The position numbers and the translations under genes are program-made. A stretch of 64,000 nucleotides of DNA from Alphaproteobacteria bacterium. GTDB taxonomy: Bacteria; Pseudomonadota; Alphaproteobacteria; UBA828. A model generated the notes under the pieces. It was not told the DNA's origin, did no database searches, and worked only from the letters and a program-made list of their open reading frames with translations. Position 1 is the first letter of the stretch; every line of letters starts with the position of its first letter. Where the stretch lies: assembly GCA_965214705.1 (NCBI GenBank), contig OZ243972.1:1376001-1440000 (forward strand), written 5' to 3'. Positions 10,487 to 64,000 of the stretch are shown here, one piece after another.

Positions 10487-13400
10487 ATGGTAGCCACCCT
10501 CGCCCAGGCCGCCTCGGCCTCGTACTACCTGGAGAGCCAGCGCTCGTTCCGACACCCTAACGAGTACTACACGGCAGGCGAGGAGCCGGACGGGGTGTGG
10601 TTCAATCCCAAGGGCCTACTCGGCCTTGAGAACGGAGGCAAGGTCGACAGCGGCGACTTCCAGCGGCTCTACAATGGCTTCGCGCCGGACGGCTCCAGCA
10701 GGCTCACCAAGAACGCGGGCAGCGAGACGCGCTCGCCGGGCGTGGACATGACCTTCTCGGCCGACAAGAGTGTGTCCACGCTCTGGGCCCTCGCCGATCC
10801 GGCCCTGCGTGGTGAGATCGAGCAGGCTCACAACACCGCCGCCCGGGTGGCCCTGGAAGAGACCGTGTTCCGCTACTGCGCGTATACGCGGATCCGGGAC
10901 AGGGAGGGGCGTATCAGGGTTCTGCCTGCCGATATCTCCGTGGCGATGTTCCAGCACGGCACCAGCCGTGAGAACGACCCGCAGCTTCATACCCACTGCG
11001 TGATCTTCAACGCGGCTCGCACGCACGAGGACGGCAAGTGGCGGGCCATGCACCAGTACCCGGTCTACAGCTGGGCCAAGGCTGCGGGCGCCGTCTACCG
11101 CAATGCCCTGGCCTGGAACCTGCGCGAGCGCCTCGGCATTCGCATGGAGCAGTACGGTCCCAATGCCGGGTTCACCCGCATCCAGGGCATGCCGGAGGAC
11201 CTGCAGGTCTTCTGGTCGAAGCGGCGGAAGGCGATCGTCGCCAAGGCCAGAGAGCTGGGCATTCCCTCGCTCGGCAACGCCTCGCGCATGGCCGGCGTCA
11301 ACAAGCTGACGCGGGCCGGCAAATCCCATGACAACGACCCGGAGGTACGTCACCGGCGCTGGATGGGTGAGGCGGAGGGTTTCGTCGAGCGCGAGGCGCT
11401 GATCGCCTCGGTGACCGGGCACGAAGTGAAGATCGATCAAGAGGCGATCCGGGAGCTGACGGACCGCCTCGACGATCTACCCGCTCACCTGGCTCGGGAA
11501 GAGGCCGTGTTCCGCCGTCCCGACATGGTGGAAGCGGCCGCGAATGCGGCGGCAGGCCTGATCGGCCCCGAAGCGCTGAAGACCTCCATCGAGCGGCTTC
11601 GCCGCAACCCCGAGATCGAGCGGCTGGAGCCGAAGAAGCCGACGGCAGAATCCCTCGCCGGCATGGTGCACACCGAGGTCTATTCCACCCGGCACAACCT
11701 CGGGCTCGAACAGGCCGTGAAGGACATGACGGCGGCCATGGCGACCGATACCGGCCACGGCCTGCCGGAAGAGGCGGTGAAGGAGAAGGTGGACGCACTG
11801 TTGGAGCAGGGATATCCGCTGAGCCAGGAGCAGTCGCTGGCCATCCGTCATGCCACCGTGAAGGGCGGCCGCGTGGTGGTGATCGAGGGTGCGGCGGGCT
11901 CGGGCAAGACCACCACGCTTCGTCCCATCACCGACCTCCACAAGGAGCGCGGCTACGAGATCGTGCCGACTGCAGTCGCCTGGCGCACTGCGGTGGCGCT
12001 CGGCGACGACTGTCACGCCAGGGCCTACTGCGTGGACAAGCTTCTCAAGCTCGCCGCCAAGGAGCAGGTCGAAATTGGCCCCAGAACCCTGATCGTGGTG
12101 GACGAGGCGGGGATGCTGTCCACCCGCCAGGCCCATCACATCCTGCAGCTCTCCGAGCGCCACGGCGCGAAGGTGGTGTTCGCCGGCGACACCCGCCAGC
12201 AGCAGCCGGTGGAGGCCGGCCCTGGGCTGCGGCTGATCCGCGACGTCGCCGGCAGCGTCCGCGTCGACCGCATCAGGCGCCAGAAGGCGGACCTCGAGGA
12301 CGTGCTGGTCCATGTCCACAAGGAGACGCCGGAGCAGGCGCGCTTCAGGGCCGGGCTGACCAATCGGCAGGAGCGCGACGCAATCCTTGCTGAGTACGAA
12401 GCACTGGAGAAGAAGCCCCTGTTCACGCCGTGGCAGCTGGCGGTCTCGGAGGCGCTCAGGGACGGCGAAGCCGAGAAAGCCATCGAGGCGTGGCATGTGC
12501 GCAACCGGATTCATCTCTGCCACGACGAGGAGAAGACGCTCACGAAGCTGGTGGACGACTGGGAGCGCCACGTGCGCGCACAGCCCGGCACGTCCACCGT
12601 CGTGCTCTCGCGCACGAAGGCGGAGGGCCGGGCGTTGTCGTGGCTGATGCGTCAGCGCATTCTCGCGCGGACCCCCGACGCGAAGCGCGCGGTCATCGAG
12701 GTGAGCCGGGACCTGGACGGGCGCCTGACGGAGCCGCTGGAGATCGCGGTGGGCGACCGCATCCGCATCGGCGCCACGCAGTGGGAGAAGCAGCTCTTCA
12801 ACGGCACCGTGGTCACGGTCGAGGACCTCGAAGTCAGGCCCGCAGAAGCTGCGGCGGTGTCGCGCAAGGCCCAGAACCGGCTAGCCGGCGGAGCCGCCGG
12901 GCGCACGGCGGAGCCGGACAGCGGCGCTCCCGAGCCGGAGTACTCCGTCCACATTACCGCGCGCACCGACGATGGGCGGCGCGTCACGTTCCGCCACGAC
13001 GAGATCCGCGACTGGCACGACAACATCCGCCTCGACTACGGCTACGCCATGACCATCGCCTCGGCCCAGGGGTTGACCGTGGACAGGGCGTTCCTCCTGG
13101 TGGACGACCGGCCGGCGCGCGAGACGATCTATCCGGCCGCCACACGGCACCGCGAGGCGCTCGACATCTACGTAAACCGGGCGCCGCTCGCCTTCGACAT
13201 CGCCGAGCACCGGCCGGAGGACGAGGCGGAGCGGCCCGTCCTCGACAGCGACGTCCGGGCGTATCTCGCCGAGCGCTGGTCGCGCTCGCAGCCCAAGGCG
13301 GCGGCTCTCGACTACGTCTCCGGTGGCATGTGGCGGGATGCGCGGGAGGACGCGCAGCATCACGAGCGCGATGCCGGAGACACGCGGCAAGGGACGGCCG

Positions 13401-14596
13401 AGTATCGTGGGCCGGCCAACGACAACGCGCTGATCCGCATCGCCCAGGAGATTCGGCACGCGGTCAACGGCTGGCGACACGGCACGGCAGTAGACGCGTT
13501 TGCGGCCGAGCGCAGCGAGGTTCTGGCGGCCTGGGACCGGCTGCGCGAGCAGGCGCGCGACGAGGGCGACGCGGTGGCGCTGAGCCCGGCCTTCCGCAAG
13601 ACCCTGGGCAGGCACGGCGCCCTGATGAAGCAGGCCGCCTCATTCAGGGCCCGGCCGCGCATATTCGAACGGTTGCTGGCGGAGCGCGCCGGGATCGGTC
13701 AGGGGGAGCTGGAGGAATTGCGCGAGGTGCATGCCCGCGCTCGCAAGTACCTGCGCTCGGTCAGCGCCAGGACGACTTCCGCCACCCGGCAAGCCGCGCA
13801 GCCCGAGGAAGCAAGAACCGGGATCGTTGCGGCGGATGCCCCGGCTCACGTCCCCGAGTCAACCGTCGACGAGCACGCAAAGGTACAGCCGAGCCAGCCG
13901 GCCGCTCCCGATCCCAGGCACGACACCGAACCCACCTGGGAGACCCTATACGACCGGCTGGAGCGCGACTGGAACGAACATGTCACCGTCGCCAACCGGG
14001 CCGGACTGCCGCTCCCGCTCGTGCGCGGGTACGACGAACTGATCGGCCGCGTGCAGGACCTCGCCGAACATCCGCGACTCCCCTCGACGGAGCGGGAGGA
14101 ACTGACAGGACTACTCGACTACCACCGCACGGAGACGGCCGCCCGCAGTGCCGTCCATGACTACGTCGCAGCGGCGGAGCGCCATGTGAAGGCCTTTGAG
14201 CCCCTCCAGCGCGATGCGGAAAGCCAGGGCGTACACGTTTCCGAGGTCGCCGGTTGGCCCGAGTGGCGCCACGAAGCGCAGCGTCTGGCAGAGGCCGGCA
14301 GAGCGATCCTTGCAGACGAGGGCACCTACGGTGCCTATCTTGACGCCCTTGCCGCCGGAAAGCCACGCGCTAGGCTTACGGTCGACCAGTTGCGCACCCG
14401 CATCGAGGACGGACGCGTCAAGGCAGCCAAGCCGGAGATACCCGAACCCCGCCGCGATTCCGCGGCCAAGCAGCAGGAGGGTATCGCGTATGTCCTTGAA
14501 GACCCCGCGAAGCTCAAGGAGCTCAGGGAGCAGCTCAAGAGGCGGGAGCGCCAAGTCGGTAGGCAACACAAGAGAAGCCGGGGCCTCAGCATCTGA
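10487..14596 (+). CDS. MOBF relaxase-helicase (TrwC/TraI/TraA-like)
   Basis: N-terminal YY...YY, DMTFSADKSVS, HGTSRENDPQLHTH (3H motif), Walker A GAAGSGKTT, VVDEAGM, YAMTIASAQGLTVD. Confidence 0.95.
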   Translation: MVATLAQAASASYYLESQRSFRHPNEYYTAGEEPDGVWFNPKGLLGLENGGKVDSGDFQRLYNGFAPDGSSRLTKNAGSETRSPGVDMTFSADKSVSTLWALADPALRGEIEQAHNTAARVALEETVFRYCAYTRIRDREGRIRVLPADISVAMFQHGTSRENDPQLHTHCVIFNAARTHEDGKWRAMHQYPVYSWAKAAGAVYRNALAWNLRERLGIRMEQYGPNAGFTRIQGMPEDLQVFWSKRRKAIVAKARELGIPSLGNASRMAGVNKLTRAGKSHDNDPEVRHRRWMGEAEGFVEREALIASVTGHEVKIDQEAIRELTDRLDDLPAHLAREEAVFRRPDMVEAAANAAAGLIGPEALKTSIERLRRNPEIERLEPKKPTAESLAGMVHTEVYSTRHNLGLEQAVKDMTAAMATDTGHGLPEEAVKEKVDALLEQGYPLSQEQSLAIRHATVKGGRVVVIEGAAGSGKTTTLRPITDLHKERGYEIVPTAVAWRTAVALGDDCHARAYCVDKLLKLAAKEQVEIGPRTLIVVDEAGMLSTRQAHHILQLSERHGAKVVFAGDTRQQQPVEAGPGLRLIRDVAGSVRVDRIRRQKADLEDVLVHVHKETPEQARFRAGLTNRQERDAILAEYEALEKKPLFTPWQLAVSEALRDGEAEKAIEAWHVRNRIHLCHDEEKTLTKLVDDWERHVRAQPGTSTVVLSRTKAEGRALSWLMRQRILARTPDAKRAVIEVSRDLDGRLTEPLEIAVGDRIRIGATQWEKQLFNGTVVTVEDLEVRPAEAAAVSRKAQNRLAGGAAGRTAEPDSGAPEPEYSVHITARTDDGRRVTFRHDEIRDWHDNIRLDYGYAMTIASAQGLTVDRAFLLVDDRPARETIYPAATRHREALDIYVNRAPLAFDIAEHRPEDEAERPVLDSDVRAYLAERWSRSQPKAAALDYVSGGMWRDAREDAQHHERDAGDTRQGTAEYRGPANDNALIRIAQEIRHAVNGWRHGTAVDAFAAERSEVLAAWDRLREQARDEGDAVALSPAFRKTLGRHGALMKQAASFRARPRIFERLLAERAGIGQGELEELREVHARARKYLRSVSARTTSATRQAAQPEEARTGIVAADAPAHVPESTVDEHAKVQPSQPAAPDPRHDTEPTWETLYDRLERDWNEHVTVANRAGLPLPLVRGYDELIGRVQDLAEHPRLPSTEREELTGLLDYHRTETAARSAVHDYVAAAERHVKAFEPLQRDAESQGVHVSEVAGWPEWRHEAQRLAEAGRAILADEGTYGAYLDALAAGKPRARLTVDQLRTRIEDGRVKAAKPEIPEPRRDSAAKQQEGIAYVLEDPAKLKELREQLKRRERQVGRQHKRSRGLSI

Positions 14597-14897
14597 GTCT
14601 CGACGTCGCCCCGATTCCGATTGATGGGGCACCACGAGCGAACCCGCGTTGCCCAGCGACCAAAACAGATGCCGTAATGGGGCACGGCATCAACCTGCAC
14701 CGTTGGAGCCTGTACCGATGGCGGCGAATCGGGGTGTCGTTGCCCTTACACGCTGAGCGTGTCCACGGGGTCTTGCCGAAAGGCGCGCCCCAATCCCTCG
14801 AAAGGAAAGGGCAACGATGGAGTGGACGCCCCCTCCCGACGGCATCGAATCGTGCCAAGGTGGTGTCGTGTTGAACCACCTGAGGAAGGAGGCGTCC

Positions 14898-15827
14898 ATG
14901 GAGAAAGTTACCATCATCGGGATCGACTTGGCGAAGAACAGCTTTCAGCTGCACGGGGCGCGGGATGATGGCTCCGTCGCATTCCGGAAGAAGCTAAGCC
15001 GCGGAAAGTTGCTCGACTTCCTCGCCGGCCAACAATGCTGTGTGGTCGCCATGGAGGCCTGCGCGAGCGCGCACTATTGGGGTCGCGAGGCCCAAGCGCT
15101 TGGACACGAAGTCAAGTTGGTCCCGCCGATCTACGTGAAGCCGTTCGTGAAGCGGCATAAGAACGATATGGCTGACGCGGAGGCGACCACCGAAGCGGCG
15201 CAGCGCCCAACCATGAGATTTGTGGCCGTGAAGACGGAAGAGCAGCAGGCCATGGGGATGCTGTTCCGCACACGCGATCTCCTGGTACGCCAGCGCACGC
15301 AAACGATCAATGCTCTGCGGGGTCACTTGGCGGAGTTCGGCGTCATCGCTCCGCAGGGGCCGGCTCATGTCAGTCGGTTGGAAGCAGCACTCATGGATCC
15401 GGGCTCGGGGCTACCGGAGGGGGTTCGTGAACTGGGTGGCCTTCTGCTGGAGCAGATCGCGGGCCTCAACTTGAAGATCGTCGGTTTGGAGAAGGAGCTC
15501 CGCGCCTGCGCGCGCCAGGACGAAGAAGCTTCGCGACTGATGACGATACCAGGCGTCGGGCCGATCACCGCAATGGCGGTTCAAGCATTCGCGCCTCCGA
15601 TGGAGAGCTTCCGTCGCGGGCGCGACTTCGCCGCGTGGCTCGGGCTCGTTCCAAGGCAGCACACGACCGGCGGCAAGCCGAGGCTGGGCAAGATATCCAA
15701 GATGGGCCAACGTGATCTCAGACGGCTCTTGGTCGTGGGTGCCATGGCGGAGATCGCTTGGGTAGTTCGTCGCGGCACCACAAAGGATCCGTGGTTGCTC
15801 AGTATGATGGAGCGCAAACCGCGCAAG
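14898..15827 (+). pseudogene. IS1111-A transposase/recombinase, N-terminal 310 codons
   Basis: GIDLAK, MEAC, KNDMADA, IPGVG, GLVPRQHTTGG; the frame breaks at ...ERKPRK. Confidence 0.92.
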
Positions 15828-15830
15828 GTT

Positions 15831-15872
15831 AAGGGTTGGGCAGGCTCTCTCTCGAGAGCCTGCCCAACCCTT
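15831..15872. repeat. Perfect 19-bp-stem hairpin at the oriIS end
   Basis: AAGGGTTGGGCAGGCTCTC-TCTC-GAGAGCCTGCCCAACCCTT. Confidence 0.95.
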
Positions 15873-16134
15873 TTGAACGAAGCCGCGGGCCACGAGAGGC
15901 GAAGTTGAGCTATGTGGAAAGTGCGCTGATGTCAGCGTCAGGCGGCATCCACCGGCAGCAGAGTTGCGCATGAGATCGACGCTCGCGCCGGCCTTTCGGC
16001 AGGCATGCGGGCGCACGCTGCGAGGACTGAGCGGGATGTGAGCCGAGGGCTGTCAGCCCGGCCCAAGCGGAGACAGGTTCGGTCGTGCGTCGGCGCTTTG
16101 GCGCCGTTGCGCGGGGCCGAAGCGAGCGGGCGTC

Positions 16135-17187
16135 TCACGGTTTCCCCCTGTGGGTCGGCGGCACGGCCGGCGGACCGCGCGTCGAGCGGGGCTCATGGCG
16201 GCGGCGGATTTCGCGGACGAGGCGCATGACGCCGCCGCAGTGGGGGCAGGCCACGGGCGCGGTGCCGATCTCGGGCTCTTCGTCGGGCTCGGCCTGAGCG
16301 CCGTCCACGCTTCCCTCGGGGGCGGCGCAGCCGAGGGCGCCGAGAGCCTGGCGTGCTCTCTCCAGCGTGCTGGCGCGGCAGCCGTTGGCGAGAATGCCGA
16401 AGTAGCGGATGCGGTGCATGCCGTCCGGCAGGACGTGCATCAGGAAGCGGCGGATGAACTCGTCTGCGCTCACGGTGGCGATGCCGTAGCGCGGCTTTCT
16501 CTGCCCCGGCGCCTTCGGCTTGCGGTGGCGGAAGGAGACCGTCTCGCCGTCGAAGGAGACGATGCGGCTGTCGGAGATGGCGATTCTGTGAGTGTAGTGC
16601 GACAGGTACCGGAAGACCTGCTCAGGCCCGCGGAAGGGCCGCTTGGCGTAGACCACCCAGTCCCTGGCCCGGGCGGCGGCAAGCGTGGCGTGGAACTCGC
16701 CGGGATTGGCGAGGTGGGCGACGGTGCCGTGGAACTCCAGGTCCCCCCGGCCGTGGGCGCGGGCGAGCTCCTTGAGGAAGAGGCGGCGGAACAGGCTGCC
16801 GAGGACCTTGACGGGGGCGAGGAAGGTGGTGCTCCCCGTCTTCCACTCGCCGCTGTCTACGTCGAAGCCCGCGTTGGGCACGACCACGTGCAGGTGCGGG
16901 TGGAAGCGGAGCTTCTGATCCCAGGTATGGAGGACCGCGGTGCCGCCGATGCGCATGCCACCGTGGTGGGGATCGGCGGCGATGGTGCGCAGGGTCTCGG
17001 CGACGGCCCGGAAGAGGATGTCGAACACCACCCTTCGGTTGCAGAAGGCAATGGCGGCGACCTCCTTGGGCAGGGTGAAGACCACATGGAAGTAGGGCAC
17101 CGGCAGGATGTCCCCGGCGCGGGCCTCGCTCCAGAGGTTGGCGGCGAGACCCTGGCAGGTCGGGCAGTGGCGGTTGCGGCAGGAGTT
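16135..17187 (-). pseudogene. IS91-family (Y2 HUH) transposase, C-terminal part
   Basis: NSCRNRHCPTCQ, YFHVVFTLP, LHTW...HPHLH (HUH), YLSHY (YxxxY), RIRYFG, CPHC. Confidence 0.92.
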
Positions 17188-17199
17188 CTTATGAGCTCT

Positions 17200-17532
17200 C
17201 TCCGCAAGGCCCGGCTTCATCTACGTCAATGGCATTCGCAATCTCTCCACTCGAATCCGCGGCCGATGTCCAGGCAGAACGTCGTTTCCACGCAGCGATC
17301 CGCCACGCTGCTCAGCTCTTATCCGGTTCGGAACTCCGGCGCTTGCCGGCTCCGTGACCCCAATACCGCATCCAGGCGGTGGTGACGTTCCGGGAGGCGG
17401 GACCCATCTGTAGAACGGTGCCAAGCGGCGACCCAACTCTTGCCCGGTCACACGCCTTGCCCGGCATCCTCCGCGGCCGCGTCCGACCACGTCGGAACCT
17501 CCTGTATTTTCCCGTTCGTTCGGCCGGTGCCC
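17200..17532 (-). ncRNA. Putative bridge/seek RNA of IS1111-B (boundaries approximate)
   Basis: Non-coding region downstream of tnp containing segments that match both target arms and both donor-junction arms, separated by hairpins. Confidence 0.75.
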
Positions 17533-18729
17533 TCAGGAGACGATGGCGCCCTCAGGCACCAGTCCTTGGGTGGCATAGCGCCACAGCGCGATCAGCAGCT
17601 TGCGCGCGACCCCCACGATCGCCCGCTTCCTCGCTCGCCGGTCCCTCCCGCCACCGGCATCCCTGGCGACGTAGGCGTGGAACCACTTCGTGATCGCGCT
17701 TTCCGGTTGCAGCTTCAGCCAGCGCCAAGCCATCTGGATCATGTGCTTCCTGACATGCGAGGGGCCGGCCTTGCTGATGCCAAGATCGTGGTCGACATCT
17801 CCGCTCGCCCACGGCACCGACGTCAACCCGGCCCAGCTGCCCAACTCCCGGCGATTGCGGAAGTCCCGATAGAACACCTCGCCAGCCAGCAGTGTGGCGT
17901 CATTGAGGCCGATGCCATGGATGCGCGTAAGCGCCGCGATCATCGCCGTCCCGTCACGATTGGTCGCGTCCTGGGCTTTCCGGCCAGCCTTCAGCAGGGC
18001 CCTCTTCTCGGCCTCGATCATCTCGATATGCTCCTCAACCAGGCGAAGCATCCCCACCGCCCTCTCAATCTCTGCCCGCGCACGCGGCGGCAACGGCGCC
18101 CCATAGCCCGTCCGCGCGGTCGCGAGGCGTTCGAGGAAGTCCGGCTTGCGCGGCGCCAGATCGAAGATGCCGTGCAACTGCAAGAGCCCTTTGATCCGGT
18201 TGTTGACGCGGGTACGCTCGCTGATCAGCGTGTCCCTCTCGCGCAGCAGGCGCTTGGCATCCTCCTGGTCCACATCGGGCACGCGCACCCAGGACATGGC
18301 CTCCGAATCGCCTTGGTCCCATGCCTTCAGAGCCCGAACCATCCTCCTCGCGTCGATACGGTCGGTCTTTTTCTTCTTGGCGCGCCGGTTCACCCGCAGG
18401 CTCGCCGGATCGTTCATGAAGATATCGATCTCCGCGTCACGGCGCTCGATATCGCGGGCAAGCCAGAACCCCTCGTAGCCCGCCTCGTAGGTCAGCATCA
18501 CCCGAGGACGGGCGCCGAGCTCCCTCGCCACCCGTTCCCGCACCGACCCGACGAGATCCAACAGTCCCGCCGTGTCGGCAGCAGCCAGTGTGTGGATGCT
18601 GATGCTGCCACCCGAGGCATCCGGGCAATGCACGCCAACGATCCACGATTTGAGGCTGATCTCCACCGCGACATAAATCGTGCTACTACTTGCGCCTGTC
18701 AGCGCGGTCGTGTCTGGACCATCCGACAT
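17533..18729 (-). CDS. IS110-family transposase/recombinase (IS1111-B)
   Basis: VAVEIS..W, YEAGYEGFWL, KTDRIDA, IHGIG, PWASG (catalytic Ser), ISKAG, VARKLLIALW. Confidence 0.92.
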   Translation of the reverse strand: MSDGPDTTALTGASSSTIYVAVEISLKSWIVGVHCPDASGGSISIHTLAAADTAGLLDLVGSVRERVARELGARPRVMLTYEAGYEGFWLARDIERRDAEIDIFMNDPASLRVNRRAKKKKTDRIDARRMVRALKAWDQGDSEAMSWVRVPDVDQEDAKRLLRERDTLISERTRVNNRIKGLLQLHGIFDLAPRKPDFLERLATARTGYGAPLPPRARAEIERAVGMLRLVEEHIEMIEAEKRALLKAGRKAQDATNRDGTAMIAALTRIHGIGLNDATLLAGEVFYRDFRNRRELGSWAGLTSVPWASGDVDHDLGISKAGPSHVRKHMIQMAWRWLKLQPESAITKWFHAYVARDAGGGRDRRARKRAIVGVARKLLIALWRYATQGLVPEGAIVS

Positions 18730-18837
18730 CCGTCCACTCCGTTGTTGACGATTCCGCTCGGAGAGAAGGTGCTGGCCTTCTCTCCGAGCTTGTCTAACCG
18801 CCAGAATCGATTCGGTGCCACCGTGCTCATGGTATCT

Positions 18838-19026
18838 GAAGAGCGGATGCTCGCGCCCGCAGCCCTCGCAGGCGTACATGTGGCCGCCGAGCACGGCGGT
18901 GCGGCACGCCTCGATGGCGCCCATGACCTTGAGCCGGGCGGCGTCGATGCGCCCTTTGTGGCGCTCACGGAAAGCGGCGCCGGCGCGGCGGAGGATCTCC
19001 GCCACGCCCGCGCGTTCGGCCTCCAC
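18838..19026 (-). pseudogene. IS91-family transposase, N-terminal 63 codons
   Basis: VAEILRR...AIEACRTAVLGGH..CEGC (first half of the Zn-binding domain). Confidence 0.9.
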
Positions 19027-19032
19027 GCGCCG

Positions 19033-19911
19033 TCAGTTGCGCAACGCTGCGAAGCCTGAGATCGGGTGGTCGAGGCCCTCGAACATCTTGCCGGTGACGC
19101 GGGCGTAGTGACGGGTCGTGTTCGCGCTTCGATGGCCGAGCATGTCCCGGATCACCTCGATATCGCCGCCGCGCTCGAGGAGATGGGTCGCCGCCGAATG
19201 GCGCAGGCAATGGAAGGTGTAGCTGCGGTCGAGCTCGGCAATGTCGCGCGCCCTCCTGAAGGCGGCCTGCAAGGTCTCCGTTGCGATGGGCCTGTCGAGC
19301 GAGACGCCGTAGAAGAGCCAGCTCGTCGGACGCGGCCAGATGTTCCTGTAGTAGGCGCGCAAGTAGTGGATGACGATGTCCGGCAACGGTGCCATTCTCT
19401 CGGTGCCGCCTTTGCCGGAGGGGATGTGCAGCAGCTTCTTCTCCGACAGGATGTCGCCGACCTTGATGGCCAAGGTCTCGGAGATGCGGAGCCCGCCGCC
19501 ATAGCCGGTGACAATGGCAGCACGGTGGCGGAGGTCGGGCGTCGCAAGGATGAGGTGCTCGACCTCCTGCTCCGACATGTAGCGCGGCAGCTTGCCGGGC
19601 TTCTTGCGGGAGCGCAGGCCGGCGACGTGGTCAGGCCAGCCGAGTGTGTCGATGTAGAGGAAGTTCAGCGCGGCGAAGGAGACGTTGGTCGTGCCCGGAC
19701 TGAGCCCCTTGTCGATCCGCCCCAGGTACCACTGGCGCACCTGCTCGGCGTCGAGCTCGTCCGGCGAGGCGTCGTAGTACCTGGCCAGGTTCTTGATCTC
19801 GCAGATGTAGGCCTTGGACGTGCTCGCGGCCAGATTGGCGATGCGGAGCTGCTCCTCCATGCGCTGGCGAAGAGGGGTGACGGTGTTCGTGTCGCACGCG
19901 GTCCCGGTCAT
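19033..19911 (-). CDS. Tyrosine recombinase (integron-integrase-like N-terminal SAM domain)
   Basis: PLRQRM...; catalytic R (GLRISE), K (GKGG), HCLRH, LGH, Y (TRHYA). Confidence 0.93.
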   Translation of the reverse strand: MTGTACDTNTVTPLRQRMEEQLRIANLAASTSKAYICEIKNLARYYDASPDELDAEQVRQWYLGRIDKGLSPGTTNVSFAALNFLYIDTLGWPDHVAGLRSRKKPGKLPRYMSEQEVEHLILATPDLRHRAAIVTGYGGGLRISETLAIKVGDILSEKKLLHIPSGKGGTERMAPLPDIVIHYLRAYYRNIWPRPTSWLFYGVSLDRPIATETLQAAFRRARDIAELDRSYTFHCLRHSAATHLLERGGDIEVIRDMLGHRSANTTRHYARVTGKMFEGLDHPISGFAALRN

Positions 19912-20143
19912 TATCGATCTCCCTGGATCGCGACGGCGCGCCGCCGGACCGATCCGGCGACGGTCCGTCGCAGGGGTCGATGCTAACCACTGGTGATCGG
20001 GAGGCTGCTGGGGATCCGCCACCCGACGGGCGGAGCGCCACTGACGCAACCGGGAAGCGAACGCACAGAACAAACGGCACCCGCGACGCCTCGGAAATGA
20101 ATGAACTCTACGCCGCTAACTCCGCGTAGCGGCTTCGTTCAAG

Positions 20144-20245
20144 GTCGTCGCCATCGCGTTGGCCAACCGCATGGCGCGCATCATCTGGGCACTGAACACT
20201 AAAAAGGAGCTCTACCAAGCTCCCGCCGCCGCCCTACAAGGGTGA
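20144..20245 (+). pseudogene. IS1111-A transposase, C-terminal 33 codons
   Basis: VVAIALANRMARIIWAL...* continues the frame interrupted at 15827. Confidence 0.92.
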
Positions 20246-20480
20246 ATGGCGGGCAGCCGTTGGGGGGATGTGAGCAGGTCGGAGGATCGGTAAGGGCAAA
20301 CGGTCAATGAGACGGGATCGGGAAAACCAGTTTCAATGTCAGAGTTTCGAACTCGGGGCAACGATATGGACTCGATCCTCGCATCTCCATACGGGCCAGC
20401 GGCGGCTGAATGCCGCACCAACAGGCCGGATAGACGACTGTACCTGACCACATGCACCAAGCCGTCCAAAAAAAGTGCTT
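20246..20480 (+). ncRNA. Putative bridge/seek RNA of IS1111-A (boundaries approximate)
   Basis: Contains GAAAACC and GGGCAACG (target arms) and CTCCAT and ATAGACGA (donor-junction arms) within stem-loops. Confidence 0.8.
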
Positions 20481-20929
20481 GCATCACCGGGGGCGTCCAT
20501 AGACGGTTTTCGCCTGTCCCGCTCGTCAGGTGAACTCCATGTCGCCGCAATGCGGCCAAGCCTTCACAGCGCTCGTATGAAGCCACCGGGCACGTTCTCC
20601 GATCGCGGCCTCGTCCCAACCGGAAGACCTCTCTGGCCGGCATCACACTCACCGACATCCGCGTCGTGATGCTCGCTCCACGTAGAATCTCCTGCGAAGC
20701 ATACCGAATGCTGCACCGAAACCAGATCGAATTGGCAACAGGGCGGCCAGGACGTTACACATGAAGTAGGTGAAGAAGTACGTTCCTTCCAGTAATAGAG
20801 ATAGATCGACCCGTGATATGCTACGGCTGTGCGGTCCGGCTGATGACGTCGCAGCGTCTCATCTGAGTCAACACCACGCAGTTGGGCAGCTTCTAACCCA
20901 ATTGGAGGCACCGACGGAGGACTTGGACG

Positions 20930-21766
20930 ATGTGTGAGCCGAAGCGTACCGCCGTGATTTATGATTTCGACGGAACGCTCGCCCGTGGCAATCTACAAGA
21001 GACCAGCTTCATTCCGAAAATCGATATGAGCAAAGAGGATTTCTGGACCGAGGTGAAGGCTCGAACCCGCAATCATGATGCCGATGAAGTTCTCGTCTAC
21101 ATGCACCTCATGCTCGACATGGCGCAAGAAAAGGGCGTCAAAGTGACCATCGAAGACCTGCGGCGACATGGCAAGAAAGCTCGGCTCTTTCCCGGTCTCT
21201 CGGACCGGTCATGGTTCGAACGCATCAACCAGCACGCCGCAACACGCGGCCTCGCCCTTGAGCACTACATCGTCTCCTCGGGCATTTACGAGATGATCGA
21301 TGGATGCTCGATCCGCGATGCCTTCCGCCGAGTGTTTGCGTCAAAGTTTATCTATGTTGACGGTGTGGCGGCTTGGCCGGGTGTTGGTATCAACTACACG
21401 ACAAAGACCCAATATTTGTTTCGGATAAACAAGGGCATCGATAACCACTGGGACAACGCCTCCCTCAACAGCTTCATGCCGGAAGACGAGCGCCCGATCC
21501 CGTTCGACCGTATGATCTTCTTGGGAGACGGAGATACCGATATTCCGACCATGAAAACGCTTACCTACATGGGTGGTCACTCGATCGGAGTCTATGATTC
21601 TAATGGGCACAGCCGCGACCTCACCAAAATCCACAGACTGATTTCCGATGGCCGTGTCGACTTCGTGGCACCTGCTGACTATGAGGAGAAGTCGCAGCTC
21701 GACATCATCATTAAGGGCATCCTCGGGCGCATCGCGAGAAAGTACGGATACAGGCCCTCAGCATGA
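20930..21766 (+). CDS. HAD-superfamily hydrolase/phosphatase
   Basis: Motif I YDFDGTL, motif II IVSSG, motif III K (TTKTQ), motif IV GDGDTD; GGAGG RBS. Confidence 0.9.
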   Translation: MCEPKRTAVIYDFDGTLARGNLQETSFIPKIDMSKEDFWTEVKARTRNHDADEVLVYMHLMLDMAQEKGVKVTIEDLRRHGKKARLFPGLSDRSWFERINQHAATRGLALEHYIVSSGIYEMIDGCSIRDAFRRVFASKFIYVDGVAAWPGVGINYTTKTQYLFRINKGIDNHWDNASLNSFMPEDERPIPFDRMIFLGDGDTDIPTMKTLTYMGGHSIGVYDSNGHSRDLTKIHRLISDGRVDFVAPADYEEKSQLDIIIKGILGRIARKYGYRPSA

Positions 21767-63023: not shown

Positions 63024-63368
63024 TCCTTCCCCTCCTTGGGTTCGCGCGGGCGGTCGCCCGCCCCGCCGCCGGCGGCATGGACAGGCCGCCAGAATAGAAA
63101 TCGCCGCCCGCAGGGGTCAAGCGCGCGTGCTGGCTCACTCCGAAATTCTCGCCAGGGTCGTGCTCCGCGCGGTCTCGCGCGCGCTCCGTGGGACGGGAAA
63201 CTTAAATTTCATGCGGGACGCGCCGGGATTATGCGGGATAAGTGCGATGTCGCGCACGCGCGTCCCGCGAGCCAGAGTCGCGCAAGCCCGCAGGTTCTTG
63301 CGCGCAGCAATTGGGGTCTCGCGCGCGAAAGAAGAGGCCCGCGCGGCATCGAATCCCGCTCGTTCAAG

Positions 63369-64000
63369 GTTAAGGGTTGGGCAGGCTCTCTCTCGAGAGC
63401 CTGCCCAACCCTTTTGAACGAAGCCGCGGGCCACGAGAGGCGAAGTTGAGCTATGTGGAAAGTGCGCTGATGTCAGCGTCAGGCGGCATCCACCGGCAGC
63501 AGAGTTGCGCATAAAATCGACGCTCGCGCCGGTCTTTCGGCAGGCATGCGGGCGCACGCTGCGAGGACTGAGCGGGGTGTGAGCCGAGGGCTGTCAGCCC
63601 GGCTCAAGCGGAGACAGGTTCGGTCGTGCGTCGGCGCTTTGGCGCCGTTGCGCGGGGCCGAAGCGAGCGGGCGTCTCACGGTTTCCCCCTGTGGGTCGGC
63701 GGCAGCGCCGGCGGGCCGCGCGTCGAGCGGGGCTCATGGCGGCGGCGGATTTCGCGGACGAGGCGCATGACGCCGCCGCAGTGGGGGCAGGCCACGGGCG
63801 CGGTGCCGATCTCGGGCTCTTCGTCGGGCTCGGCCCGAGCGCCGTCCACGCTTCCCTCGGGGGCGGCGCAGCCGAGGGCGCCGAGAGCCTGGCGTGCTCT
63901 CTCCAGCGTGCTGGCGCGGCAGCCGTTGGCGAGGATGCCGAAGTAGCGAATGCGGTGCATGCCGTCCGGCAGGACGTGCCTCAGGAAGCGGCGGATGAAC
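63369..64000 (-). mobile_element. Second copy of the IS91-like element (oriIS end and transposase 3' end; runs off the window)
   Basis: Near-identical to about 15828-16460 with scattered SNPs; again preceded by CAAG. Confidence 0.93.

Follow-up and report, generated by a model that had tools for sequence, protein, structure and literature searches.

Why would a rolling-circle transposon keep a tyrosine recombinase in which every presumed catalytic residue is intact? The question is raised by an insertion sequence (IS) of the IS91 family on contig OZ243972.1 of an alphaproteobacterial genome of the UBA828 lineage (assembly GCA_965214705.1). The element lies within a stretch of 64,000 nucleotides (positions 1,376,001–1,440,000 of the contig) that we refer to as the window and whose coordinates are used below. 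It begins with an end called ori, finishes with an end called ter, and encodes on the minus strand a tyrosine recombinase followed by the transposase TnpA. The last nucleotides of ter are the reverse complement of a segment that directly follows a hairpin at ori (the sub-ori segment). Comparison with relatives identifies this complementarity as a defining, co-varying feature of the recombinase-bearing subgroup of the family. We judge the chances to be evenly balanced that, in the transposed strand, the sub-ori segment pairs with ter and with a short target word and that the resulting fold is read by the transposase.

Complementary ends of a high-copy IS91-family element

The genome (7.9 Mb in three contigs, C1 to C3) has 90 complete ends of the ori type and 97 of the ter type. 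Pairing them gives 61 copies of 2,666 bp, the unit length of the IS, and nine of 4,316 bp that contain the same nested IS; the others are rearranged or further nested. The window copy, one among ~90, is such a composite of the 2,666-bp IS and a 1,650-bp nested IS, with its genes on the minus strand, and it is dead because its tnpA is split by the nested element, a member of the IS110 family. An intact copy elsewhere in the genome (2,666 bp) encodes a 413-amino-acid transposase together with the same recombinase. This transposase (P0001) scores 382.5 bits on the NCBIfam model NF033538, "IS91 family transposase" (cut-off 125) and contains residues H159, H161, H163, Y257, and Y261 that are invariant among ten aligned sequences; the Pfam matches of tnpA are Y2_Tnp and Zn_Tnp_IS91. 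A sequence-only reading of the window had described an IS91-like HUH element with a co-encoded tyrosine recombinase, and the family model, the Pfam matches, and the invariant residues bear this description out. Indeed, the element has the marks of the IS91 family: a match to the curated model, the HUH histidines and two tyrosines, absence of a target duplication, and a short word at the ori end. It is a new, very high-copy member of a subgroup of IS91 elements that is itself known but whose mechanism is unexplored.

The limits of the element follow from its flanks. A G directly precedes GTTAAGGG in 82 of 82 distinct flanks (from 90 copies), and the base that follows ...GTTCAA at the other end is variable (G 32, A 24, T 12, C 2; n = 70). 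The element therefore extends from 15827 (G) to 20142 (A). The sequence-only reading had placed it at 15828–20143; the element itself stands, but its limits shift one base to the left, which leaves the sequence of the joint unchanged. The empty site can be read from paralogues of the interrupted gene. This gene, recognized by Pfam as an IS110-family transposase, breaks off on the plus strand after ...CAA (5' part, 14817–15826), resumes at 20143, and runs to ~20245. Its paralogues (~80% identity; C2:656253, C3:633831, and C1:1912627) run through the site without a break, so the insertion amounts to exactly 4,316 bp, with no target duplication.

Ahead of the invariant G, the flanks favor A (66/82), A (77/82), and C (45/82), and farther out G at −7 (59/82) and C at −8 (48/82). 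These preferences match CG..CAA of ter; two of the 82 distinct flanks, which the counts still include, are not true IS91 targets, so that 80 true flanks remain. Insertion takes place on the plus strand 3' of (C)AA, the same nucleotides with which ter ends, and the donor ori site and the ter end both read CAA^, where the caret marks cleavage. A three-nucleotide word is all that the 80 true flanks share, and none of them shows a duplication. Such flanks fit an inserting activity supplied by the HUH enzyme at a three-nucleotide word and not site-specific recombination. Head-to-tail tandems, in which ter runs directly into the next ori, are to be expected if a resident ter end is the best-matching target. 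One such pair is found in this genome (C2:646628–651960), and two of 11 copies are in tandem in a relative (genome G402, loci L138 and L142). A loose contig end of 10 letters likewise reads ter joined to ori; a genomic tandem explains it equally well. The tandems and this contig end are at most indirect signs of rolling-circle transposition by way of a single-stranded circle.

On the plus strand, the ter arm of the repeat reads GCGGCTTCGTTCAA (20129–20142), after whose CAA the element ends; it is the exact reverse complement of TTGAACGAAGCCGC on the same strand (15873–15886), the proposed guide segment. The latter directly follows the ori hairpin (15831–15872), which consists of a perfect 19-bp stem (arms 15831–15849 and 15854–15872) and a four-nucleotide loop (15850–15853). 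The first four nucleotides of the element, GGTT (15827–15830, plus or bottom strand), remain unpaired and form a bulge that holds the joint or the nick site. With DNA parameters, the joined ends are predicted to fold into a 14 + 19-bp stem with the GGTT bulge at the joint (−47.6 kcal/mol). Joining the ends gains −9.4 kcal/mol; random internal segments in the place of ter gain −4.2 ± 2.1 kcal/mol on average, and one of 200 is as strong. Local hairpins next to ter (20086–20128), including one of a CCGC-loop-GCGG type that is kept in relatives, compete with pairing by the inner portion of the long repeat.

The complementarity and the hairpin, the bulged stem, and the competing ter hairpins had all been pointed out by the sequence-only reading; the sequence and the computed folds agree with it on each. 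The same reading had regarded the fold as unique to the junction of the joined ends. Such a junction is not required, since the donor ori already holds a miniature of the fold in which the flanking CAA pairs with the TTG after the hairpin, across the same bulge.

Conservation of the repeat among recombinase-bearing relatives

Of 400 other genomes sampled from the class, 13 contain homologues of the recombinase (29–67% identity), and in 18 of the 19 loci retrieved tnpA starts within ~120 nucleotides downstream of the recombinase gene. A wider survey by pattern scan, with one genome per species, yielded 591 confirmed relatives, of which the best 80 were analyzed. Their recombinase gene is directly followed by tnpA in 56 cases; for nine of the remaining 24, the contig ended within 1.2 kb. 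The 80 come from Proteobacteria, Acidobacteriota, Bacteroidota, Firmicutes, Planctomycetota, Patescibacteria, and other phyla, and 333 plasmid records contain a homologue of the recombinase. Together with this distribution, the invariant residues of both proteins indicate that the gene pair is an old, co-inherited module under selection.

We searched for the repeat between the 260 nucleotides upstream of the recombinase gene and the 240 nucleotides that begin 180 nucleotides downstream of tnpA. A homologous ter/sub-ori inverted repeat was found in 35 of the 56 loci, which belong to many phyla. Selection of these 35 was visual and relied on a shared core that ends in ...CCGC, and the other 21 stand outside the pair counts; among those 21, some contigs end early and some loci may truly lack the repeat. 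Loci L132 (an indel) and L151 (a weak repeat) were also omitted from the pair count. One arm lies 78–224 nucleotides upstream of the recombinase gene and the other 250–335 nucleotides past the end of the tnpA alignment. The inner positions (1–9) are conserved in sequence across families and are paired in 90.4% of cases, compared with 72.5% when partners are permuted. The outer eight or more positions vary between families yet stay complementary: positions 10–17 are paired in 84.0% of cases, compared with 47.5% for permuted partners, and none of 1000 permutations reached the observed pairing.

These figures also dispose of chance. Within single loci, a fortuitous match seemed plausible inasmuch as the 14-mer, with a score of 14, is barely above the best controls between two 300-nucleotide regions (9–13). 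Its reappearance at these two positions in 35 of the 56 loci, with co-variation to a degree that no permutation reached, refutes this explanation, to which we assign virtually no probability. The sequence-only reading had proposed that ter and the sub-ori segment be compared for co-variation in homologues, and had named absence of the complementarity there as grounds for refutation; it is present and it co-varies.

Imperfect pairs show a strand preference. The 36 distinct repeat pairs comprise 533 paired positions and 32 transversions, 12 of which are a fixed C-versus-G non-pair at position 9. Among the transitions, 19 give a G·T pair in the plus (bottom) strand and two give one in the other strand (binomial p = 2e-4, uncorrected for relatedness). 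The G·T-keeping transitions are spread over 11 positions, and grouping by lineage, done by eye, reduces the contrast to ~15 events versus 1–2. We considered a general deamination bias (C>T on the bottom strand) as the source of this asymmetry and rejected it, since substitutions among the 61 full copies favor neither strand (14 sites with C>T, 15 with G>A). It is chiefly on this strand-specific asymmetry that we base the view that the arms pair in single-stranded form and do not serve only as two duplex sites.

Seven recombinase-less relatives (IS1294 on pUB2380, an IS801-like element, ISSbo1, and four others) were examined for such a repeat, and none had one above shuffled controls. The repeat goes with the recombinase-bearing clade and could therefore serve the recombinase, although presence of the gene and phylogeny are confounded in this comparison.

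Multi-copy relatives allowed the ends of six more families to be mapped, which makes seven with that of the window. In 7/7 families the joined plus strand is predicted to form a single long stem with a one-sided bulge of 4–7 nucleotides that starts at the joint (−45.8 to −69.8 kcal/mol). In two acidobacterial families, whose repeat is at least 30 bp long, the stem extends to ~50 bp. All seven families show a three-way match: the word that flanks ori, read on the coding strand, equals the start of ter and is the complement of the hairpin-proximal nucleotides of the sub-ori segment. This word is TTG in the window's own family, GATT in a second (4 copies, 3 independent flanks), GACTT in a third (5/5), and GCGTT (11/11), GCGTTT (5/5), CGT (4/4), and CACA (3/3) in the others; in small families the word might belong to the element itself, and in the present genome it is a preference and not invariant.

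Several observations on individual relatives and copies accompany these results. Most of the 35 relatives contain a conserved CCCCATAG-like motif on the coding strand ~20–30 nucleotides upstream of the sub-ori arm; in the window the corresponding motif is CACATAG (~15900–15915). An old subtype of the element is represented in the genome by four copies (C1:465113, C1:4080026, C1:391921, and C2:373975) that differ from the consensus at 38–55 positions. Its sub-ori arm has two changes and its ter is unchanged; one change gives a G·T pair in the plus strand and the other a G·G mismatch. A distant gene pair, L132, was found in one plasmid record only, the Escherichia coli IncC plasmid NZ_LT985243.1 (470–2840), where it lies between qacEdelta1 and aadA1. 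Its tnpA is 28.6% identical to that of the window element, its ter end carries the same 14-mer, and it is inserted in an attC-like sequence beside GTTAGAC. ISShvi3 has also been reported beside an attC site (PMC9229058).

The recombinase and rival accounts of the fold

The recombinase gene (19033–19911, minus strand) encodes 292 amino acids that match Pfam Phage_integrase (113.9 bits) and Phage_int_SAM_4 (46 bits), and its stop codon lies 6 nucleotides ahead of the start of tnpA. The best NCBIfam matches of the protein are XerA, XerC, and integron integrase, all below cut-off, and the equivalog cut-off of XerD is missed as well; the recombinase is thus not one of the named proteins XerA, XerC, or XerD. 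It scores 130.2 bits on the integron-integrase model TIGR02249 (cut-off 265) and 74.5 bits on NF011946 (cut-off 435). Its closest relatives of solved structure are XerA (4a8e) and XerD, followed by IntI4 in third place. The alignment with XerA is continuous, whereas that with IntI4 breaks in two, with residues 182–212 of the recombinase (31 amino acids) opposite residues 175–245 of IntI4 (71 amino acids), which indicates that the IntI-specific insertion is missing. Columns that are invariant among 12 sequences include R142, K167, H234, R237, H260, and Y269, which we take to be the catalytic set of a tyrosine recombinase. By these comparisons the protein is a simple, Xer-like tyrosine recombinase with a SAM-like N-terminal domain and a presumed catalytic R-K-H-R-H-Y set. 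It had been called integron-type in the sequence-only reading, an assignment that the two IntI cut-offs, the missing insertion, and the rank of XerA as best solved relative contradict.

The position of the gene is constant. In every copy it lies inside the IS, between the ter end and tnpA, and no attI, promoter, or cassette platform accompanies it. No conserved two-arm core site with a 6–8-bp spacer was seen by eye in the ter region or at the junction, where no formal search was made. The recombinase is probably an integral accessory that acts on the same ends as the transposase, either in the fidelity of termination or in handling ends that are joined or in tandem. According to a title cited in PMC5714925, the Tn916 integrase directs strand-specific cleavage of oriT by a nuclease; by analogy, this may be a precedent for a tyrosine recombinase that steers an HUH-type nick.

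In the mechanism that we favor, the plus strand (5'-ori...ter-3', complementary to the coding strand) would be displaced and transposed. Unwound ter would pair with the sub-ori segment, and the resulting helix would stack on the ori hairpin; the ter cleavage site (CAA^) would thereby come to lie at the edge of the four-nucleotide bulge. The nick at ori in the donor would have the same geometry, with the flanking CAA paired to TTG. Transposase bound to the hairpin could then read the fold during termination, during closure of the single-stranded circle, and later in the choice of a target word. Such logic would be akin to the DNA guide of IS200/IS605 elements, albeit with a much longer helix.

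A number of points weigh against this mechanism. Co-variation is no less expected of an inverted repeat whose arms bind one protein as duplex sites. In the target logo, −5 and −6 are not T-rich (T in 13/82 and 20/82 flanks, respectively), which means that target pairing past three nucleotides is not contiguous. Position 9 is a fixed non-pair in one-third of the repeat pairs (12/36), and the sub-ori changes of the four old copies, two in each, are uncompensated. The ter arm can also place its inner 4–5 bp in a local hairpin whose variable base co-varies by eye, so the long pairing competes with another conserved fold. Classical IS91-family elements work without the repeat, as the seven recombinase-less loci illustrate. 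L132 was not inserted at the ter-like word that lies a few nucleotides away from its insertion point. The mechanism further assumes that the strand termed "bottom" in PMC13181058 is the one complementary to tnpA, and the subgroup to which it would apply is known from sequences alone.

The first of these points leads to the main alternative, which we consider somewhat unlikely: the repeat would consist of duplex binding sites, comparable to terminal inverted repeats, for the zinc domain or the recombinase, with no pairing between single strands and with the hairpin lying outside the right-hand repeat. The inner half, which is conserved across phyla to the extent that it remains 72.5% paired when permuted, does resemble a protein-recognition motif; repeats of at least 30 bp, as in some families, are like classical terminal repeats; and position 9 is a fixed non-pair. 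Restriction of the repeat to the recombinase-bearing subgroup (35/56 loci versus 0/7 recombinase-less loci) also points in this direction, but that comparison is confounded by phylogeny, given that the tnpA genes concerned are just 25–28% identical. Duplex sites do not predict the excess of G·T-keeping transitions in one strand (19 versus 2), for which general mutation bias is no explanation. Moreover, the repeat ends exactly at the ter cleavage site but 46 nucleotides from the ori nick, unless the hairpin is folded out. The recombinase might instead be a resolvase of tandem multimers or cointegrates that acts at a site near ter, the repeat being unrelated to it. This possibility is compatible with pairing of ter and the sub-ori segment, and we regard it as unlikely. 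Other replicative transposons carry a tyrosine resolvase beside its site, head-to-tail tandems do arise, and the 200-nucleotide region upstream of the recombinase gene contains conserved palindromes. Termination failure is also frequent in IS91 and IS1294, at 1–14% according to PMC13181058. Against a resolvase, unresolved tandems persist in two genomes, inspection by eye brought up no obvious conserved two-arm core site, and an unconstrained resolvase faced with 90 identical sites per genome would scramble the chromosome.

The remaining accounts give the recombinase a catalytic role on folded single strands. According to the sequence-only reading, it would be integron-integrase-like and would recognize the junction as attC-like single-stranded DNA in a hybrid of rolling-circle transposition and single-strand recombination, which we consider very improbable. 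The protein does belong to the Xer/IntI branch, with IntI4 as third-best solved relative, and the presumed catalytic residues are invariant over 29–67% identity, so that catalysis is probably selected. The repeat is found together with the recombinase, the folded junction holds up, and the host recombinases XerCD integrate a filamentous phage through a folded single strand. Yet the recombinase falls below both IntI cut-offs and lacks the insertion with which IntI reads extrahelical bases (31 residues in place of 71). The word GTTAAGG, noted for its similarity to the integron core GTTRRRY, is present and agrees at six of seven positions, but a similar word occurs in one of the seven mapped families and is hence attributable to chance; its GTT is unpaired in the bulge and not conserved, and R and L boxes are absent, so the fold is not attC-like. 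The 80 true flanks with their single shared word and no duplication, which fit HUH insertion, and the location of the gene inside the IS in every copy, with no attI, promoter, or cassette platform, are further points against an integron-like system. In the most far-reaching version of the mechanism that we favor, the recombinase-bearing subgroup would consist of DNA-guided rolling-circle transposons whose sub-ori segment pairs with ter to halt replication and with a target word of 3–6 nucleotides to set the insertion site, and whose recombinase is catalytic on the folded single-stranded junction. We consider this combination quite improbable.

Genomic setting and relation to known elements

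The window copy of tnpA is divided into a C-terminal part of 350 codons and a stop (16135–17187, minus strand), which includes the HUH motif and both catalytic tyrosines and matches Pfam Y2_Tnp (185.7 bits), and an N-terminal part of 63 codons (18838–19026, minus strand), which starts with GTG at 19026 and encodes the start of the zinc-binding domain. The nested IS110-family element between them (17188–18837, minus strand) was delimited by comparison with an intact copy and matches Pfam DEDD_Tnp_IS110 and Transposase_20. Contigs from 4/4 sequencing runs join 17186 to 18837. The genome contains 18 near-full copies of this IS110-family element, 15 of which occupy the identical position within tnpA of the IS91 element. 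Their hosts belong to at least two subtypes: that of the window has 32 differences from the consensus, and those of the other eight composites have 2–4. The recurrence of one site in at least two host subtypes indicates apparent specific targeting and repeated inactivation of the IS91 element.

The 5' end of the IS91 element is itself a target. Eight copies seemed to be inserted at ...TTCGG; this apparent target was rejected because a DDE-type IS of 2.1 kb, located in TTAA at the 5' end of the IS91 element, precedes these copies, and the two flanks noted above as not true targets are thereby explained. The DDE_Tnp_1 IS (~2.1 kb) is present in 16 copies with flanks of an NTTAA type and occupies the TTAA at nucleotides 3–6 of the IS91 element, at C2:511120–513217 and in seven other places. 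Five of these cases are of one variant, and three flanks suggest a second variant. At the ori hairpin, the loop (15850–15853) is inverted from TCTC to GAGA on the plus strand in nine of 90 copies with at least two sequence backgrounds, which suggests recurrent hairpin-mediated inversion or template switching.

Elsewhere in the window, a second copy of the IS91-family element, represented by its ori end (63368–64000, minus strand; C1:1439369), runs off the edge, and an open reading frame of 1,369 amino acids (10487–14596, plus strand) lies just upstream of the interrupted IS110 gene. A scan of 14000–21500 against Rfam gave no match at E up to 0.1. A promoter scan found no promoter-like site, and three terminator-like sites were found versus 2.1 expected. 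Contigs from sequencing runs labelled with 11 other organisms (11 further studies) contain 15–61% of words sampled from 19000–21500, and the intact IS was confirmed in two of these runs.

The element shares with classical members of the family (IS91, IS801, and IS1294) an HUH transposase of the Y2 type whose N terminus holds a zinc domain, ori and ter ends that are distinct from each other, and insertion without target duplication beside a short word akin to the one cleaved at ter. A single-stranded circle with joined ends and tandem and one-ended products would be further common traits. It differs from them in sequence, their tnpA being 25–28% identical, and at ori, where classical elements have a short hairpin and a CCTAT-type motif and the present subgroup has a terminal hairpin module of 42–90 nucleotides. 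Classical members have no tyrosine recombinase; IS91 encodes Orf121 in its place, and others a small open reading frame or none. ISfinder lists IS91-family members with an upstream "phage integrase" reading frame, ISShvi3 and ISWz1 among them, which have the same two-gene layout as the element described here. NCBI labels such pairs "site-specific integrase" and "IS91 family transposase". The papers that we searched, which did not extend to ISfinder or TnPedia, describe neither a mechanism or role for the recombinase nor complementary ends.

The closest comparison for the recombinase is Orf121, the accessory protein encoded upstream of the IS91 transposase, which is reported in PMC13181058 (Fauconnier et al. 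2026) to improve precise recognition of ter and to damp insertion of the bottom-strand circle. In both cases the accessory gene lies immediately upstream of tnpA and nearly overlaps it, with a gap of 6 nucleotides here. Orf121 has 121 amino acids and no recombinase fold, whereas the accessory described here is a tyrosine recombinase of 292 amino acids that has kept its presumed catalytic residues. We infer from the shared arrangement that the two proteins may be functionally analogous. The same source states that only the single-stranded circle of the bottom strand is inserted in IS91 and that members of the family lack terminal inverted repeats. Our finding of the repeat in 0/7 classical loci agrees with the latter statement.

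In IS608 of the IS200/IS605 family, base pairing with a short segment beside a hairpin sets both cleavage and target sites (PMC3201880 and PMC5934647). As described there, IS608 resembles the present element in its HUH enzyme, sub-terminal hairpins, and a target word that equals the word at one end of the element, and its single-stranded circle would be a further likeness. IS608 employs a dimer of a Y1 enzyme and a four-nucleotide, partly non-canonical pairing, whereas the enzyme here is of the Y2 type and the proposed Watson–Crick helix would span 14–35 bp for ter and 3–6 nucleotides for the target. Integrons likewise have a tyrosine recombinase from this broad branch, and they too make use of a bottom-strand hairpin that is folded and contains unpaired bases. 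The likeness ends there: the recombinase of the element has no IntI insertion, its fold has no R and L boxes, the GTT in that fold is neither paired nor conserved, and attI and a cassette array are absent.

Elements of the IS91 family move resistance and virulence genes, and their recognition of ter ends and targets is poorly understood; the bottom-strand circle was established as the active form just recently, in the 2026 study (PMC13181058). For a large subgroup that spans phyla, the present analysis offers a testable rule, namely that ter is the complement of the sub-ori segment, that the joint lies in a bulge, and that the target word is the ter word. Even if the pairing is not functional, the repeat amends the notion that inverted repeats are absent from the IS91 family. 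If the two-enzyme version held in full, the element would be an HUH/tyrosine-recombinase machine without a described counterpart, and if the DNA-guided version were true, target choice could be reprogrammed by altering the element's own DNA. Should the pairing be functional, one structure would explain fidelity of termination, formation of tandems, and choice of target, and the target word would be engineerable.

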